DNA of 64,000 nucleotides from Candidatus Poribacteria bacterium (GCA_963663765.2 CAXXUA010000005.1:1280001-1344000), one strand, 5' to 3'. Shown: positions 10,728-16,806, counted from the stretch's first letter. Numbers and translations are program-made. The notes: generated by a model from the letters alone, not told the origin.

Positions 10728-10864
10728 TATGGTGGATTATACAATTAAATCTACATTCTGAGTTGTAGGAGGGAACTCCGATTCCCGACTATCAAAGGGT
10801 TTGGTCGTGATTCGGAGATCGTTCCTACAAGTAAGATGTCCAATTGTTTCCATATTTCACCATG
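10728..10864. repeat. REP doublet (GTAGGAGGGAACTCCGA...GGAGATCGTTCCTAC, 10765-10828) inside an inverted-repeat shell
   Basis: Near reverse complement of 28813-28876; GTAG-led hairpins. Confidence 0.7.
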
Positions 10865-10885
10865 TAGTGCCAAAAGGAGATAAAA

Positions 10886-11742
10886 ATGTTAAGTTCAAGT
10901 CGACCATAATCGCACTCGCGATCCTATTCGTTTTCATCAGTTATGTGAGTAACTCTTATGCCTTTGAAATTGTAGAAATGGATCCAGCAGATGGATCCTC
11001 AGTTGAGGTATATTACGACGCTTGGTATGATTATCTATCCCACGGTGCGAGTTTAAGTACCGACGAACCGTATTATGCGGTAAGTTGGTATGTTGACGGT
11101 GTTTACGTAGGAACTAATGGGGGTGGTAATCCAGAAGATACAGAAGCTTATTTCGGTTTTTATAATCTTACTGAAAGCGGTACAGGAACAACTTATACAA
11201 TAAGGGCAGAAGCATGGTCCATTGGCACGCCTGAAAATCCGAGTGTCTTAGATACTGCTACCTATACGTTCACTGTCTACACTTTTGAAATTTTAGAGAT
11301 ACGCCCTGAAGGTGGACTCCCATGGGAACGACCATCTATCCCGTAGGTGCATGTTGATAATATACCGCACCACGATTATGTATTGGTGTCAGAGCCATAT
11401 CATTATACGGATGAAAGTAAACGAGATACTATCCGTTTTTCATATAGTGTTGTGCGTATTAACCCAAATGATATGGGCAAAAAACATGCTGCCTGGATCT
11501 CTACAGTGTATAGTGCGGATCCAATTTTTATTCAAGGGGACGTGGCGAAGGGTGAGACTGTAAATGTGCCTTTTTCTCACTCACATACATCTGTTCGGAG
11601 GAATAACGGTTGGAATGATGATGTCTTTAGGGTACAGGCACATGTATCCTTAGAGGTAAATAATTTAGATGACTTTAGCGTGAACGATAAATGGGAGGAC
11701 GATGATTTTTTGGACTTCCGTGTACCTGTAGATGATTTCTAA
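10886..11742 (+). pseudogene. Disrupted secreted acidic beta-rich protein
   Basis: AAGGAG-ATG at 10886 is out of frame with the signal-peptide-like KFKSTIIALAILFVF...SYA; in-frame TAG at 11344-11346 separates ORFs 10801-11346 and 11347-11742, which share a frame. Confidence 0.6.
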
Positions 11743-11778
11743 CTATTATTTTTCTTTTTTCACACAAATGTCTTTTAT

Positions 11779-13200
11779 CAAGAATCACGACAAAACCCCT
11801 ACCTTTAGGTAGTGGGATGTAGTCGTGCTAAGTGCTTGTGTCAAGAAAAAACTTGATTTTTGGTTTAAAACATGAGATACTCATTATACCAGTTCAGTGT
11901 AGGTGCTACTAACACCTACACACCTTTAGTAGAGGGAACTGACGTCTTCATAGGACTGGAATATCATCATGCTAAAAACACATAAGATTGCATTGAATCC
12001 AAATAACAATCAACGAAAATGGTTTGCACAACAGTGTGGCTATGCGAGATTTGCATATAATCATGCATTAGCAGATTTCAAGTCTGCATTGGCAAATGAT
12101 GAGTTCTTATCCGCTGCGAAGTTAAACACTCGATTTAATATTGCTAAGAAAGCACATGCTTGGACTAAAGATATGGATCAGGTTGTAGCCAATAAAAGCA
12201 TATTTGGTAACTTGTCTGCTGCGCTTGCGAATTGGGTTGGTAAGCGTGCGAAGTTTCCGAAGTTCAAGAAGCGTGGCAAAAAGGACGCATTCACCACAAA
12301 TAATCAATCTGTAGAAGTTGAAGGTAAGCGTATCAAACTTCCTAAGATTGGTTGGATTAGCATGTTTGAATCATTGCGTTTTGTGGGTAAGATTATGAAA
12401 GTGACGATCTCAAGGACAGCACATCGTTGGTTTGTATCTATCACCATAGAAATAGAGGACACCGAAGCAGTTGATAACTCAACGCACCCTGTGATTGGTA
12501 TAGATGTAGGCATAAACACACTTGCCACATTGAGTGATGGCACGAAATATGATAATCCAAGACCCCTGAAACGATATGAAAAGAAGTTAGCAAGAGAACA
12601 ACGTAGATTAAGTAGAAAAGTTTTCAAGTCTAACAACTGGTTCAAACAAAAACACAAGTTAGAACGTATCTACTATCGTATCGCTTGTATCCGAAACGAT
12701 GCACATCATAAAGCAACTACAGAGATTGTCAACCTCGCATCTGCGATCGGTATTGAGACACTCAAGGTTACTAATATGCTGAAGAACAGAAACCTCGCAA
12801 AAGCATTGTCAGATACAGCATTAGGCGGTTTCCTGCTAAAACTCAAGACAAAAGCAGAAGTGCACGGTATACCTGTCAAAGAAGCAGATATGTTCTTTGC
12901 AAGTAGTAAAACCTGTTCCGGTTGTGGACACAAAAAGAAAGACCTAACACTTTCAGAAAGAATGTATCACTGCAGTCAATGTGATATGTCTATAGATAGA
13001 GATGTCAACGCTGCAATAAACTTGAAACCAACTACGGTGGGACACACCGAAAGTCACGCCTGTGGAGTGCAAATAAGACCCAACGCTGTTCAGGAAAGGG
13101 CACGAGACACGGAAGCAGGAAAAGTCGTTTGGAAACAACTCAAACCGTTTCCAATATAAGAACTAAGAACCCCCATGCTTTAGCTTGGGGAGTATGTCAG
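11779..13200 (+). mobile_element. IS200/IS605-family TnpB-only (IS1341-like) element
   Basis: TTTAT immediately upstream (11774-11778); left-end hairpin 11786-11827; right-end hairpin CCCCCATGCTTTAGCTTGGGG followed by AGTATGTCAG; no tnpA; removing the element restores a palindrome. Confidence 0.85.
11969..13159 (+). CDS. tnpB: RNA-guided endonuclease TnpB
   Basis: CGYARFAYN, FPKFKKR, IKLPKIG, RuvC IGIDVG / IETL / DRDVNAAINL, zinc finger CSGC...CSQC. Confidence 0.95.
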   Translation: MLKTHKIALNPNNNQRKWFAQQCGYARFAYNHALADFKSALANDEFLSAAKLNTRFNIAKKAHAWTKDMDQVVANKSIFGNLSAALANWVGKRAKFPKFKKRGKKDAFTTNNQSVEVEGKRIKLPKIGWISMFESLRFVGKIMKVTISRTAHRWFVSITIEIEDTEAVDNSTHPVIGIDVGINTLATLSDGTKYDNPRPLKRYEKKLAREQRRLSRKVFKSNNWFKQKHKLERIYYRIACIRNDAHHKATTEIVNLASAIGIETLKVTNMLKNRNLAKALSDTALGGFLLKLKTKAEVHGIPVKEADMFFASSKTCSGCGHKKKDLTLSERMYHCSQCDMSIDRDVNAAINLKPTTVGHTESHACGVQIRPNAVQERARDTEAGKVVWKQLKPFPI

Positions 13201-13220
13201 AGGCATTTGTGTGTTTTGTA
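13020..13220 (+). ncRNA. Predicted TnpB omega/reRNA (scaffold overlapping the tnpB 3' end and right end; guide from 13201)
   Basis: Inferred from the known architecture of IS200/IS605 TnpB loci; boundaries approximate. Confidence 0.55.
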
Positions 13221-13236
13221 AAAGGAGGTGCTATTC

Positions 13237-14238
13237 ATGAAAGTGAAACTTTGTCTGCTTAGCCTCATATTGCTAAGTCTCTATTCCTTAGATGCGAAAA
13301 TCGTTTTTACTTCAAAACGTAATACTCATGATGATGTTCTTCAGATATATATAATGGAGGATGATGGCAGTGATGTAAAACAGATATCACATTCAGAGTA
13401 TTGGGATAGCGAACCGAGTTGGTTTCCTAATGGGAGAGAGGTCTTATTTGTGAGAGATTTCACGCGTGGAGAACGGGTTGGATTTAATTCAGCATTCTTA
13501 ATTCTTGATGTAGAGACCGGTGAAGAGCGCACATTCATGGAGAACCACCCGACTGATCAGTTTCCCGCATTATCTCAAGATGGTAGATTGTTGGCATTCA
13601 ACAGCGTGCGTACGGGGATATGGAATATTTATGTGTTGGATTTAGCGAGTGGTAACGTGAAGCAGTTGACAGATAACATAGTGAGTGAATGGACAAAGAG
13701 CATGGGTTTGTCTCCTGATGGTAAGCAGATCGCGTATCATCATGAAGGGGCAGATGGCGATAACATTTGGGTGATGGATGCGGATGATGGTCGTCCAAAG
13801 AAACGTTTAACACAGGCGAAACCGATCCGCTTTTTCCGTGGAACACCACATTGGTCTCCATCGGGGAGATACATTATCTACAGCGAACAAGAACGAACAC
13901 ATGATATATTCACAGGGGCTGTGGCTATGCGTTTGTTTATTATTGATACACTCACTAAACGTACTGAAGAACATCGGTTTCCGGGAAAGACAACCATTGG
14001 TAACCGTATGTGCTGGATGGACGATGATAAGACTGTTTTACTCTCTATGAGGGCAGACTATACAGTTGAGGGGACGTTTTCTGACATTTACCGGTATGAC
14101 TTAGATACGCGTAAGTTGACGAACCTTACCAAGCATTTGTCTGGTAGTGACTACGATCCCCATTGGATTGCGGGGCCTCTTTCGGTATCTTCCACAGGGA
14201 AGTTGAGTGTTCGGTGGGGAGAGTTGAAAGCGGAGTGA
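13237..14238 (+). CDS. Secreted TolB-like beta-propeller (PD40 repeats) protein, paralog 1
   Basis: AAGGAGG RBS, signal peptide, IVFTS/QIYIM/PSW-P-G repeats, C-terminal SVSSTGKLSVRWGELK. Confidence 0.85.
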   Translation: MKVKLCLLSLILLSLYSLDAKIVFTSKRNTHDDVLQIYIMEDDGSDVKQISHSEYWDSEPSWFPNGREVLFVRDFTRGERVGFNSAFLILDVETGEERTFMENHPTDQFPALSQDGRLLAFNSVRTGIWNIYVLDLASGNVKQLTDNIVSEWTKSMGLSPDGKQIAYHHEGADGDNIWVMDADDGRPKKRLTQAKPIRFFRGTPHWSPSGRYIIYSEQERTHDIFTGAVAMRLFIIDTLTKRTEEHRFPGKTTIGNRMCWMDDDKTVLLSMRADYTVEGTFSDIYRYDLDTRKLTNLTKHLSGSDYDPHWIAGPLSVSSTGKLSVRWGELKAE

Positions 14239-14246
14239 TAATTTCT

Positions 14247-14311
14247 TTTTTAGAACACAAGTGTCTATATAGACACTTGTGTTCTAAAAATAGACACTTG
14301 TGTTCTAAAAA
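14247..14311. terminator. Long palindrome (AGAACACAAGTGTCT-ATAT-AGACACTTGTGTTCT) with a duplicated right arm
   Basis: Perfect inverted repeat flanked by T/A tracts; related copies at 15341-15375 and split by the IS at 11761/13201. Confidence 0.6.
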
Positions 14312-14322
14312 AGGGGGTTTTT

Positions 14323-15327
14323 ATGAAAACCAAGTTGTGTCTATTCTGTCTAATCTTGCTTCAGCTGAGTGTTTGTATTATAGAGTCAAAAATCATTTTC
14401 ACCTCCGGACGCAAAGACAATACAGACTATCAACTTTTTATAATGGAGGACGATGGCAGTGACGTAAGACAAGTTTTACATTCAAAGTATCGTGATCTTA
14501 AACCGGGTTGGTTTCCTAATGGGAGAGAGGTCTTATTTGTGAGAGATTTCACGGGCGGAGAACAGGTTGGCTCTAATTCAGCATTCTTAATTCTTGATGT
14601 AGAGACCGGTGAAGAACGCACATTTATGGAGAATCACCCGACTGATCAGTTTCCCGCATTGTCTCGAGATGGTAGATTGTTAGCATTCAACAGCGTGCGT
14701 ACGGGGATATGGAATATTTATGTGTTGGACTTAGCGAGTGGTAACGTGAAGCAGTTGACAGACAACATATTGAGTGAATGGTCAAAGGGCATGGGTTTGT
14801 CTCCTGATGGTAAGCAGATCGTGTATCATCATGAAGGTGCAGAGGGTGATAACATTTGGGTGATGGATGCGGATGATGGTCGTCCAAAGAAACGGTTAAC
14901 ACAGGCGAAACCGATCCGCTTTTTCCGTGGAACACCACATTGGTCTCTATCGGGAAGATACATAATTTATAAAGAACAGGAACGAACGCATGATATATTT
15001 ACAGGTGCTGTTGCTATGCGTTTGTTCGTTATTGATACACTTACTAAACGTAGTGAAGAACATCGGTTTCCGGGAAAGACACTCATATCTAACCGTATGT
15101 GTTGGATGGACGATGATAAGACTGTTTTACTCTCTATGAAGGCGGACTATACAGATGAGAGGGCGGTTTATGACATTTACCGGTATGACTTGGATACGCG
15201 TAAGTTGACAAACCTTACCAAGAATTCGTATGGTGGAGACTACCATCCTCATTGGATTGCGGGGCCTCTTTCGGTATCTTCCACAGGGAAGTTGAGTGTT
15301 CGATGGGGAGAGTTGAAAGCGGAGTGA
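14323..15327 (+). CDS. Secreted TolB-like beta-propeller protein, paralog 2
   Basis: Tandem duplicate of 13237-14238, near-identical over most of its length. Confidence 0.85.
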   Translation: MKTKLCLFCLILLQLSVCIIESKIIFTSGRKDNTDYQLFIMEDDGSDVRQVLHSKYRDLKPGWFPNGREVLFVRDFTGGEQVGSNSAFLILDVETGEERTFMENHPTDQFPALSRDGRLLAFNSVRTGIWNIYVLDLASGNVKQLTDNILSEWSKGMGLSPDGKQIVYHHEGAEGDNIWVMDADDGRPKKRLTQAKPIRFFRGTPHWSLSGRYIIYKEQERTHDIFTGAVAMRLFVIDTLTKRSEEHRFPGKTLISNRMCWMDDDKTVLLSMKADYTDERAVYDIYRYDLDTRKLTNLTKNSYGGDYHPHWIAGPLSVSSTGKLSVRWGELKAE

Positions 15328-15340
15328 TAATTTCTTTTTT

Positions 15341-15375
15341 AGAACACAAGTGTCTTTATAGGCACTTGTGTTTTT
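15341..15375. terminator. Palindrome between convergent genes (probable bidirectional terminator)
   Basis: AACACAAGTGTCT-TTAT-AGGCACTTGTGTT followed by a T tract. Confidence 0.6.
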
Positions 15376-15417
15376 CTGCTTAAATTTTAGCACCAAGGCA
15401 CTTATCGACTTAGATGT

Positions 15418-16806
15418 CTACCGCGAATTAAGCGGTAACCACATCAACACCGTAGTGCCTTCACCCAGCACGCTATCAATCTCAACCGTACCCGCATGTT
15501 CCTCAAGAATACGTTTTACATTCGCCAATCCAAGTCCCGTCCCCTTCGTTTTCCGTGTAAAAAACGGCTCAAATAAGTGTTCAATATCTTCTTCAGGTAT
15601 ACCAGCACCAGTATCCACAACTTTTATACACACCGAATCTTCCTGTTTGAATACAGACACAGCAATAGTGCCACCTTCAGGCATCGCCTCCATCGCATTC
15701 AAAACAACGTTCATAAACGCCTGTTTAATCTTGTCAGAATCAAACTCAAAGTCAGGAAGTTTCGCATCAAGTTCTAAATACAACTGAATCTGATGATGTG
15801 TTAAGTTCGCTTCCATCAATGCTAAAACACTTTGTAATACTGGTACTAACGATTGTCGTTCAAGGTTGAGTGTTGTAGGACGCGCAAAATCCATCAAACC
15901 TTTCACGATCGTATCAATCCGCTCAATCTCCTCAAGTATGTATTCCAGCGATTGACGCTGCTCGTCTGACACAAGCGGCTTCTGTAATAACATTTGCGAC
16001 AACATCCGCATAGACGATAACGGATTTCTAATTTCATGCGCAAAAGATGTTGACATCTTTCCCGCTGTCGCTAAACGTTCCGATTGAAGCAACTTGTCTC
16101 GAGATTGCTTCAGGTCCTGCGTCATCTGATTGAACGCAATGGCTAAATCACCAATTTCGTCCTGGGTTTTAATCTCACACTGTTCATCAAGATTCCCCTC
16201 AGCAACCTGTTCTGTAAAACCAACTAAATCTGTTATCGGTTCTGTTATGTTCTTGCCAATACGATGACTAATCAACGCAACGAGTACCATTACAAGAATA
16301 GCAATACCTAACATATACAACGTCAGTGTTCGCTTCGCCTCCGAAATTTCATCCATCGGACGCAGTAAGCAATAATATCTACCAAAGGACAACAAATGAT
16401 AAAAGACTTTGTAATGTTTTCCACCAAGCCTAACATCGTGTGTGACAGGTGTAGCATCGCCTTTTTGGAACGATTGTTTCACCTGTGCTAAACGCATACT
16501 TCCAGCAAGAATGTCCATTTGCTGTTCAGAATCAGCAAGATCTCTCAGCGTACTCGCATTCAACGTATAATCCGAACCAAAAACCATTACCTCTACACTA
16601 TAAGCCTCCTTGACCTTCTCAATATCTTCCTGAATAAATCCTGTTTCTATAATGACTTCAAGCCAGCCTTGTGTCTCACGCGTAAACTGTTCACTATATT
16701 TCCAAGCAAACAACTCCACCGTCAACAATGGTACAATGACGGTAATAACTCCGAAAAGCAATAAGAAAGGAAGAACAATCTTGGTTTGAATGCTGAAGCG
16801 GCGCAT
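15418..16806 (-). CDS. HAMP-domain sensor histidine kinase
   Basis: Two TM segments, HAMP DEIGDLAIAFNQM, H-box AHEIRNPL, DTGAGI, FEPFFT, GTGLGL. Confidence 0.93.
   Translation of the reverse strand: MRRFSIQTKIVLPFLLLFGVITVIVPLLTVELFAWKYSEQFTRETQGWLEVIIETGFIQEDIEKVKEAYSVEVMVFGSDYTLNASTLRDLADSEQQMDILAGSMRLAQVKQSFQKGDATPVTHDVRLGGKHYKVFYHLLSFGRYYCLLRPMDEISEAKRTLTLYMLGIAILVMVLVALISHRIGKNITEPITDLVGFTEQVAEGNLDEQCEIKTQDEIGDLAIAFNQMTQDLKQSRDKLLQSERLATAGKMSTSFAHEIRNPLSSMRMLSQMLLQKPLVSDEQRQSLEYILEEIERIDTIVKGLMDFARPTTLNLERQSLVPVLQSVLALMEANLTHHQIQLYLELDAKLPDFEFDSDKIKQAFMNVVLNAMEAMPEGGTIAVSVFKQEDSVCIKVVDTGAGIPEEDIEHLFEPFFTRKTKGTGLGLANVKRILEEHAGTVEIDSVLGEGTTVLMWLPLNSR

Follow-up and report, generated by a model that had tools for sequence, protein, structure and literature searches.

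The locus described here raises the question of whether a transposon nuclease that landed in one of several related hairpins has gained a guide against a sister hairpin nearby, and whether it has acted there. In the window, the 64,000-nucleotide stretch of a Candidatus Poribacteria genome that we analysed, a tnpB element occupies the loop of a hairpin between a gene encoding a secreted protein and the first gene of a tandem PD40 pair, and its right flank nearly matches a site at 15360, downstream of the second. We put the probability at roughly 0.8 that this is an ordinary recent tnpB element in the loop of a terminator-like hairpin and that the match at 15360 reflects the shared descent of the hairpins. 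The features of the region are as follows.

10870..11742, + strand: gene upstream of the element, encoding a secreted protein without a family match (from its translation); the gene's 3' hairpin is the insertion site
11761..11778, + strand: left half of the split hairpin, CACACAAATGTCTTTTAT (direct reading)
11779..13200, + strand: IS200/IS605-family element, tnpB only, 1,422 bp (genomic copies and an exact empty-site contig from run X8)
11796..11816, + strand: subterminal hairpin of the left end, CCCCTACCTTTAGGTAGTGGG, lying 17 nt inward of the boundary and immediately preceded by AAAA
11969..13159, + strand: tnpB, 396 aa, predicted RNA-guided endonuclease with RuvC D-E-D intact (Pfam, NCBIfam and ISDra2 alignment)
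13027..13200, + strand: probable guide-RNA (omega/reRNA) scaffold overlapping the tnpB 3' end (consensus fold; the 5' limit is approximate)
13170..13190, + strand: right-end hairpin, which together with the last 10 nt of the element, AGTATGTCAG, is part of that scaffold
13201..13216, + strand: predicted 16-nt guide AGGCATTTGTGTGTTT (placed by analogy with ISDra2)
13228..14238, + strand: PD40 beta-propeller paralog 1 (Pfam PD40 7.2e-17; TolB-like repeats under the NCBIfam cut-off)
14252..14311, + strand: hairpin B, perfectly palindromic, with an ATAT loop and a duplicated right arm (RNA fold)
14323..15327, + strand: PD40 beta-propeller paralog 2 (Pfam PD40 1.8e-12)
15341..15375, + strand: hairpin C (RNA fold -20.1 kcal/mol, z -7.0)

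The boundaries of the element are given by two independent lines of evidence, its genomic copies and empty-site contigs. The same genome carries 17 full-length copies of 94-100% identity in unrelated flanks, all of which start CAAGAATCACGA, finish GGAGTATGTCAG and retain the intact 396-aa open reading frame (17/17). A sponge metagenome contig (run X8) has 11778 fused to 13201 with exactly 1,422 bases skipped and nothing duplicated, and a contig from run X6 has the same joint with a variant left arm. The original prediction of a TnpB element bounded by 11779 and 13200 was therefore correct. Comparison with empty-site alleles, which had been proposed as a check, gave nothing among 40 related genomes, none of which contains the 3' end of the upstream gene, and was supplied by the two contigs, that of X8 being the exact empty site. 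The proposed insertion pentamer TTTAT proved to be right in four of its bases: TTAT lies directly 5' of the left junction in 21 of 21 element junctions in the genome, whereas position -5 varies (T in 11, A in 5, G in 3 and C in 2).

The element shows several features of the IS200/IS605 family: it lies 3' of a conserved tetra/pentanucleotide and caused no target-site duplication, each of its ends carries an imperfect subterminal hairpin with no terminal inverted repeats, and its TnpB has the OrfB_IS605 RuvC-like and zinc-ribbon TNB domains. The left and right hairpins both have a TTTA loop, and the right-end hairpin shows covariation among related elements. The copy in the window differs from the family consensus at 3 of 1,422 bases, the copies closest to the consensus having 3-8 differences. 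Hence, this is an ordinary, recently transposed IS200/IS605-family member with tnpB and without tnpA, and its family has recently been active.

The TnpB protein matched Pfam OrfB_IS605 (PF01385, 8.8e-31), Cas12f1-like_TNB (PF07282, 9.8e-19) and HTH_OrfB_IS605 (PF12323, 3.3e-10) and scored 272 bits with NCBIfam guided_TnpB (NF040570; cut-off 100). Residues 5-356 aligned with ISDra2 TnpB (PDB 8bf8/8exa, E 5.7e-50), and the segments GIDVGI, IGIETL and IDRDVNAA fell on D191, E278 and D361, which are named as the catalytic residues in the excerpt of PMC10097598 used here. The D-E-D residues are thus intact, as had been claimed, and an active RNA-guided nuclease is predicted.

No tnpA was found inside the element. 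Elsewhere in the genome there are six matches to Y1_Tnp (PF01797), four of them strong and located in tnpA+tnpB elements, and one tested match gave 141.7 bits with NCBIfam transpos_IS200 (cut-off 55). The subterminal hairpins of these tnpA-bearing IS605 copies resemble those of the window's element, and from this hairpin similarity the element was probably mobilised in trans by the Y1 transposase of these few copies. The four nucleotides before the left hairpin are AAAA in the window's element, the target of which is TTAT, and AAAT in the tnpA-bearing copies, in which TTAA is conserved where the flanks diverge (4/4). This covariation fits the guide-target pairing next to the left hairpin that is described in the cited part of Meers et al. 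(bioRxiv 10.1101/2023.03.14.532601).

The 3' region of the element is structured. When 14 related elements were folded to a consensus, compensatory pairs numbered 10 of 35, paired cells amounted to 96.5% versus 88.8% in shuffled controls, and the covariation score was 0.271 versus 0.129 for shuffled alignments (none of 500 reached it), with slid controls at 0.014-0.063. A single-sequence fold of 13027-13216 was uninformative (z = -0.67), and an Rfam scan of 11000-16000 found no guide-RNA family, returning only sub-threshold miRNA-like matches on hairpin B. RNA-library contigs cover 13027/13029-13193 and stop at the right end, none crossing 13200/13201 at the window's locus; these are assembled metatranscriptome contigs, from which levels and ends are not reliably readable, and only the portions that they cover were taken as evidence. 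In ISDra2 about 16 nt of the flank after the right end are reported to be included in the reRNA (PMC8612924, in part). By analogy, the right flank would provide a guide of about 16 nt, in keeping with the original prediction, and TTAT would be the TAM of the window's TnpB. The first 13 nt of this flank (13201-13213, AGGCATTTGTGTG) form the right arm of the split hairpin and are followed by a run of T.

The left half of that hairpin consists of the arm CACACAAATGTCT (11761-11773) and the loop TTTAT (11774-11778), with the target/TAM core TTAT at 11775-11778. When rejoined, the site has a DNA fold of -11.2 kcal/mol, versus -2.4 +/- 1.8 for 500 random TTAT sites. The hairpin is terminator-like; a simple promoter/terminator scan did not call hairpins B and C as terminators and gave 13 promoter-like sites versus a shuffled expectation of 12.4. 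The protein encoded upstream gave no match in Pfam or NCBIfam. Its gene has an in-frame TAG at 11344-11346, and the X6 and X8 contigs have T at 11346.

A strong hairpin with TTAT in its loop is what would be expected if the element targeted palindromes or terminator hairpins as such, the repeated palindrome being a preferred landing pad, and IS200/IS605 transposition is described as using single-stranded DNA in the same part of Meers et al. However, of the 17 rejoined sites a single one has a fold below -4.5 kcal/mol; the remaining 16 lie at 0 to -4.5, like random TTAT sites. The two intact sister hairpins are unoccupied, and C has TTAT in its loop. We consider such a preference very improbable. 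Nor is the palindrome widespread. Of the 'palindrome family' first proposed, the relation to the hairpins after both PD40 genes held. It is not a genome-wide repeat: a genome-wide scan for the hairpin pattern with up to 3 substitutions gave four matches, two of them unrelated sequences. The kin of the hairpin in the genome are therefore only the two intact local copies after the PD40 paralogs and the split one, which rules out a REP/BIME-type genome-wide palindromic repeat.

Given these three hairpins, we turn to the near-match itself. In hairpin C, TTTAT at 15355-15359 (TTAT at 15356-15359) is followed by AGGCACTTGTGTTTTT at 15360-15375, which is identical to the guide at 14 of 16 positions with mismatches at positions 6 and 13; the site lies 2.16 kb downstream of the guide on the same strand. 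Hairpin B (RNA fold -38.8 kcal/mol, z -9.9) has TATAT at its loop (hairpin at 14252-14285), hence no TTAT, and differs from the guide at positions 3, 6, 13 and further on. Direct reading confirmed both of these descriptions, which had been given earlier. Hairpins B and C differ from one another in the TAM-bearing loop and at target position 3.

The ancestry of the 15360 site can be read from a related species (G016), the only one of the 40 related genomes with the PD40 gene, which it has in single copy. Its ortholog reads TTTAT followed by AGGCACTTGTGTTT and equals the 15360 site at all 14 comparable positions; this genome lacks a copy of the insertion site. The guide thus resembles 15360 because that site is a sister copy, and an older one, of the hairpin split by the element. 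On the guide side the T at position 6 is paired with a compensating A in the left arm (AAATG/CATTT versus AAGTG/CACTT), which argues that this difference arose in the insertion-site hairpin while its stem was still intact; drift of the guide after insertion is not supported.

The same comparisons bear on the earlier suggestion of escape changes, that is, that 15360 once matched the guide perfectly and that mutations were selected there after insertion. The two mismatches are the sole differences in 16 nt and one falls in the seed, but C at position 6 and T at position 13 are already found in the G016 ortholog, and likewise in hairpin B, and the compensatory left-arm base belongs to the insertion-site hairpin. 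Moreover, the X8 empty-site contig has the left arm of the window (0 differences) and a single difference somewhere within 13201-13372. Escape is already contradicted by these data and we regard it as scarcely credible.

Chance alone yields matches of comparable quality. The genome-wide scan for TAM plus guide that had been proposed recovered 15360 and also C3:75674, an unrelated, non-palindromic TTAT site that also reaches 14/16 against the guide and departs from it at the same two positions. Over 23 real guides, no TTAT-adjacent site had 0-1 mismatch and four had two mismatches (expectation 1.3, from 2,000 random 16-mers), two of the four belonging to the window's guide. The scan began with 41 matches to a 12-nt right-end motif, 18 of which were not element ends: none of the eight inspected had the right-end hairpin, and the other ten were dropped as absent from the BLAST list. 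A seed-perfect TTAT site found for the 'guide' of one match (C12) was rejected, as that match is not an element end and the site belongs to no element.

Could the ribonucleoprotein from the window's copy bind or weakly cut 15360-15375, such that breaks or roadblocks shaped, or still shape, the PD40 paralogs by duplication, conversion or deletion? A cognate TTAT/TTTAT adjoins the 14/16 match, the TAM-proximal 12 nt contain a single mismatch, the catalytic residues are preserved and the family was recently active. Published mismatch data, as far as the excerpts cited go, bear both ways on binding or weak cutting. For ISDra2 TnpB, adjacent double mismatches at positions 1-12 abolish cleavage, whereas mismatches at the TAM-distal positions 13-16 are tolerated (PMC10097598); a Sulfolobus TnpB with its cognate, strong TAM cut a target having a single mismatch at the fifth base pair like the perfect target (PMC11043419); and Nakagawa et al. 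suggested several TnpB targets in its own host genome. Given the last two reports, one seed and one distal mismatch would not alone preclude cutting at 15360.

The paralogs themselves argue against it. They are 91.8% identical over 934 bp, and no gene-conversion tract was found between them, the longest identical run being 53 bases (P=0.54 for random placement); repair with B as the template would have to run through the loop and position 3, where B and C differ. As the paralogs are about 8% diverged and the IS copy has only 3 differences from its consensus, the duplication long predates the insertion. Hence, the link to paralog duplication or conversion put forward in the original prediction is unsupported. 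In addition, the 15360 site is unchanged relative to the G016 ortholog, site and element are both present in the assembled genome, and one pool of TnpB would serve 17 copies with 17 different guides. The site appears to bear no sequence sign of cutting, conversion or selection, and meaningful cleavage there is presumably absent. We therefore think it unlikely that binding or weak cutting at 15360 by the ribonucleoprotein has shaped, or now shapes, the paralogs, and more doubtful still that low-level cutting there could promote recombination between them; were it so, a transposon nuclease would be remodelling host genes via a guide acquired through insertion into one of several repeated hairpins.

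The explanation that we favor, an ordinary recent insertion beside an older sister hairpin, runs as follows. The tnpB-only element, probably moved in trans by the genome's Y1 transposase, inserts 3' of TTAT without target duplication, and the present copy landed in the terminator-like hairpin loop between the upstream gene and the first PD40 gene. With TTAT as TAM, the empty joint that excision leaves in the donor would be cut by means of the element's guide RNA, and recombination would then restore the element. The three hairpins are sister copies, of which that at 15360 retains the ancestral bases; the insertion-site hairpin carried both differences before the element came in.

Among the closest known systems is ISDra2 of Deinococcus radiodurans. 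The element shares with ISDra2 the HTH, RuvC and zinc-ribbon layout with conserved D-E-D, a structured RNA region over the tnpB 3' end up to the right end, and insertion 3' of a short AT-rich motif that would act as TAM (PMC8612924, in part). It differs in its target/TAM core (TTAT rather than TTGAT), in lacking tnpA and in protein length (396 versus 408 aa). The ISGst families of Geobacillus stearothermophilus, in the portion of bioRxiv 10.1101/2023.03.14.532601 cited, likewise comprise many nuclease-only elements and few transposase genes; in that system a single TnpA reportedly excises elements of several families, TAM and a DNA guide beside the left hairpin covary, and the donor joint is the target of TnpB. 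In our case that joint is present as a natural allele, and mobilisation in trans is suggested by hairpin similarity. IS1341-type tnpB-only elements also give an RNA signal at the tnpB 3' end (contigs only in our case), but those described with a sense-overlapping 3' non-coding RNA in the cited part of PMC4615843 are archaeal. The TldR proteins, as presented in an excerpt of bioRxiv 10.1101/2023.11.30.569447, resemble the present case in that the guide of a TnpB-type protein could base-pair with a site in the host close to the end of a gene. Unlike those nuclease-dead repressors, the protein has an intact RuvC site, its element is mobile and multi-copy, and its guide is the flank of one insertion; the intact D-E-D and the 17 mobile copies with 17 different flanks rule out a TldR.

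The locus is thus a clean natural case of the textbook TnpB picture, having exact boundaries, a TTAT target, a donor joint that occurs as a population allele, many intact copies and few transposase genes. It is unusual only in that the guide comes close to matching a nearby sister hairpin, and a word search of titles and abstracts in the open-access literature found no natural TnpB guide described as matching a paralogous hairpin of the host. The perfect donor joint, 15360 and C3:75674 form a natural set of three targets on which the mismatch tolerance of a new TnpB with a TTAT TAM could be measured. If 15360 were truly cut, the locus would illustrate how insertions into repeated sequence provide transposon nucleases with secondary targets in their hosts.

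The insertion between the upstream secreted-protein gene and the tandem PD40 genes is an IS200/IS605-family element that encodes TnpB only.

Features of the element and its downstream neighborhood (window positions)
11779-13200, inserted element, 1,422 bp
11796-11816, left hairpin, 17 nt inside the element boundary, TTTA loop
11969-13159, tnpB open reading frame, 396 aa
13170-13190, right hairpin, 10 nt inside the element boundary, TTTA loop
13228-14238, PD40 paralog 1
14252-14285, hairpin B, loop ATAT, 3' of PD40 paralog 1
14323-15327, PD40 paralog 2
15341-15374, hairpin C, loop TTAT, 3' of PD40 paralog 2

The tnpB reading frame matched the OrfB_IS605 (8.8e-31), Cas12f1-like_TNB (9.8e-19) and HTH_OrfB_IS605 (3.3e-10) profiles and scored 272 bits against NCBIfam guided_TnpB (cut-off 100), and its product aligned to ISDra2 TnpB (PDB 8bf8) with an E value of 5.7e-50. 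In this alignment D191, E278 and D361, which form the catalytic centre of the ISDra2 protein according to Nakagawa et al. (PMC10097598), are matched by the motifs GIDVGI, IGIETL and IDRDVNAA, and hence the RuvC D-E-D residues are intact, as originally predicted. With 11779-13200 as query, the genome to which the window belongs (15 contigs, 6.35 Mb) gave 46 matches, 17 of which were full-length and 94-100% identical. All 17 start with CAAGAATCACGA, end with GGAGTATGTCAG, keep the 396-aa frame and have unrelated flanks. Compared with the consensus, the window copy is changed at 3 of 1,422 positions and is therefore among the youngest copies. With truncated copies included, TTAT preceded 21/21 left junctions, and position -5 was mixed (T 11, A 5, G 3, C 2). 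Thus, the conserved target is TTAT, and the pentamer TTTAT that had been proposed as the insertion motif is present here as one instance of it. The element is a well-behaved, recently active tnpB-only member of its family.

The same genome (G000) contains miniature derivatives (C11:89712-89888 and C13:417325-417493) in which only some 90-110 nt remain at the left end and some 54 nt at the right, and a contig from sequencing run X6 that joins 11851 to 13164 looks like a comparable deletion form. The segment C5:684000-705000 is IS-rich, with one full element copy, several truncated or nested fragments (C5:697741-704549) and a tnpA+tnpB IS605 copy at C5:688634.

The sequence of 11500-15600, which matches every string quoted in the original prediction, gives the left flank as CACACAAATGTCTTTTAT up to 11778 and the right flank as AGGCATTTGTGTG from 13201. 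Runs containing the window stretch were labelled as sponge metagenomes or coded organisms, and four of them were compared as contigs. A contig of run X8 (308 nt, depth 2.8) follows 11643-11778 without differences and then 13201-13372 with one, skipping exactly 1,422 bases. In an X6 contig of 1,093 nt (depth 16.9), 11760 is followed by the 18 letters TCACACAAGTGTCTTTAT and then by 13201; here too the site is empty, its left arm being a variant one and its loop TTAT. As both contigs resume at 13201, the predicted boundary at 13200 is confirmed, target duplication is absent and there is an allele with the predicted donor joint. The contigs are compatible both with a site that was never occupied and with a product of excision.

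Upstream, the secreted-protein gene (start codon at 10870) is immediately preceded by a dispersed repeat, some 136 bp long (10728-10863). The repeat has 292 BLAST matches in its own genome (E<=1e-5), including tandem arrays at C5:723166-723837, and its last 63 bp match many places in same-genus genomes. The gene itself (10870-11742) has an in-frame TAG at 11344-11346; X6 and X8 contigs have T at 11346 (TAT), and thus the frame is open at that codon in other populations.

The element lacks tnpA. Its genome has six Y1_Tnp matches (four strong), and at three loci a 139-aa TnpA, which scored 141.7 bits against NCBIfam transpos_IS200 (cut-off 55), overlaps a 370-aa TnpB. The tnpA-bearing copies and the window element have similar subterminal hairpins. 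Immediately 5' of the left hairpin, the tnpA-bearing copies have the 4 nt AAAT and the window element has AAAA, and at the point of flank divergence the former conserve TTAA (4/4) and the latter has TTAT, a covariation that fits the pairing of TAM with a left-end DNA guide described in the preprint of Meers et al. We infer that the element would be mobilised in trans by TnpA of the tnpA+tnpB copies.

Related elements of 70-84% identity were found in 24/24 same-genus genomes searched. For 14 elements the final 170 nt were aligned, and 10 of the 35 pairs in the resulting consensus fold show compensatory changes. Paired cells amounted to 96.5% (88.8% in shuffles), and the covariation score was 0.271 versus 0.129 in shuffles, 0/500 of which reached the observed value, and 0.014-0.063 with slid partners. 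As the terminal hairpin doubles as the transposase's DNA hairpin, the inner helices alone argue for RNA. RNA libraries X10 and X13 gave contigs across the tnpB body at depth 11-15 and short contigs (13029-13133 and 13027-13133) at depths of 338 and 676, with Illumina adapter letters at both ends. The latter depths hint at an abundant 3' RNA, perhaps a discrete fragment of the guide-RNA scaffold, and count as a hint only, since contig depth is unsuited to ranking parts of one gene and DNA runs are likewise deeper at the 3' part (X6, 1,880-2,027 versus 354-1,059). No X10 or X13 contig was seen to cross 13200 into the flank of the window copy.

When rejoined, the flanks form a 13-bp stem including one G-T pair, with a TTTAT loop followed by a T run. 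The palindrome family of the original prediction comprises this split hairpin and the sister hairpins B and C after the two PD40 genes and is not a genome-wide repeat: a pattern scan of the genome allowing three substitutions returned B, C, two unrelated sequences and nothing else. The element does not prefer hairpins either, because only 1/17 rejoined insertion sites gave a strong hairpin (-11.2 kcal/mol), the others being at 0 to -4.5, similar to 500 random TTAT sites (mean fold -2.4 +/- 1.8 kcal/mol). The right arm of hairpin B is tandemly duplicated (14270-14290 = 14291-14311), and an X8 contig lacking 17 nt at 14284 indicates that the duplication is polymorphic.

In hairpin C, TTTAT (15355-15359) is followed by AGGCACTTGTGTTTTT (15360-15375), which is identical to the right flank AGGCATTTGTGTGTTT at 14/16 positions, the mismatches being at positions 6 and 13. 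This is the site that TnpB, guided by 13201-13216, had been proposed to target, and the premises of that proposal (flank as guide, insertion motif as TAM) are in line with Karvelis et al. (PMC8612924) and with the preprint of Meers et al. The genome-wide guide scan that it called for, done with the 16-mer on both strands, gave nine non-self sites with at most two mismatches, two of them preceded by TTAT: 15360 and C3:75674. The latter reads CTTAT followed by AGGCAGTTGTGTCTTT and lacks palindromic context; it is therefore a chance match of quality equal to 15360. The genome contains 78,978 TTAT sites. For 23 real right-end flanks (18/41 right-end motif matches lacked an element end and were dropped) there were no TTAT-adjacent sites with 0-1 mismatch and four with two mismatches, two of which belong to the window's guide. 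Random 16-mers gave 0.0585 per guide, or about 1.3 expected for 23 guides.

The mismatches had been read as possible escape changes. Of 40 related genomes searched, one (G016, a related species) has the PD40 gene, as a single copy followed by ACACACAAGTGTCTTTTAT and then AGGCACTTGTGTTTCC. Both this ortholog and hairpin B carry the bases of the 15360 site at the mismatched positions (C at 6, T at 13); these bases are hence the older state, which contradicts escape. In the insertion-site hairpin the position-6 T faces a left-arm A (AAATG with CATTT); in B, C and G016 the same stem pair is G with C (AAGTG with CACTT). The position-6 change is thus compensated in the opposite arm and arose while the stem was intact. 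The left arm of the X6 allele has the G form. At the G016 locus (L038, G016:C147, reverse strand 1323-1500) the upstream gene is reduced to a signal-peptide start before the single PD40 gene, the remnant is interrupted by a perfect palindrome of about 50 nt, and around position 2015 of the reversed locus the PD40 gene seems to be one base short compared with the window copies.

Duplication or conversion of the paralogs had also been linked to TnpB, a link that the comparison leaves unsupported. Identity between the PD40 genes is 91.8% across 934 bp (the first ~120 bp are unalignable), and given an IS copy only three bases off consensus, their duplication is far older than the insertion. Their longest identical run, 53 bases, is within chance (P=0.54 with 77 differences placed at random). 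The loops of B and C are distinct (TATAT versus TTTAT), as is target position 3, and the paralog and hairpin comparison therefore shows no sign of a cut at C having been repaired from B.

Published mismatch data point both ways. In ISDra2 TnpB, two adjacent mismatches within positions 1-12 are reported to abolish cleavage and mismatches at 13-16 to be tolerated, and the authors comment that the host genome may contain several TnpB targets (PMC10097598). For one Sulfolobus TnpB, single mismatches at a weak TAM are described as strongly reducing editing, and with the cognate TAM a target mismatched at the fifth base pair was cut as well as the perfect target (PMC11043419). On such data 15360, with one seed and one distal mismatch beside the cognate motif, would be a borderline target, and we put weak functional targeting of this site with consequences for the paralogs at roughly 7-10%.
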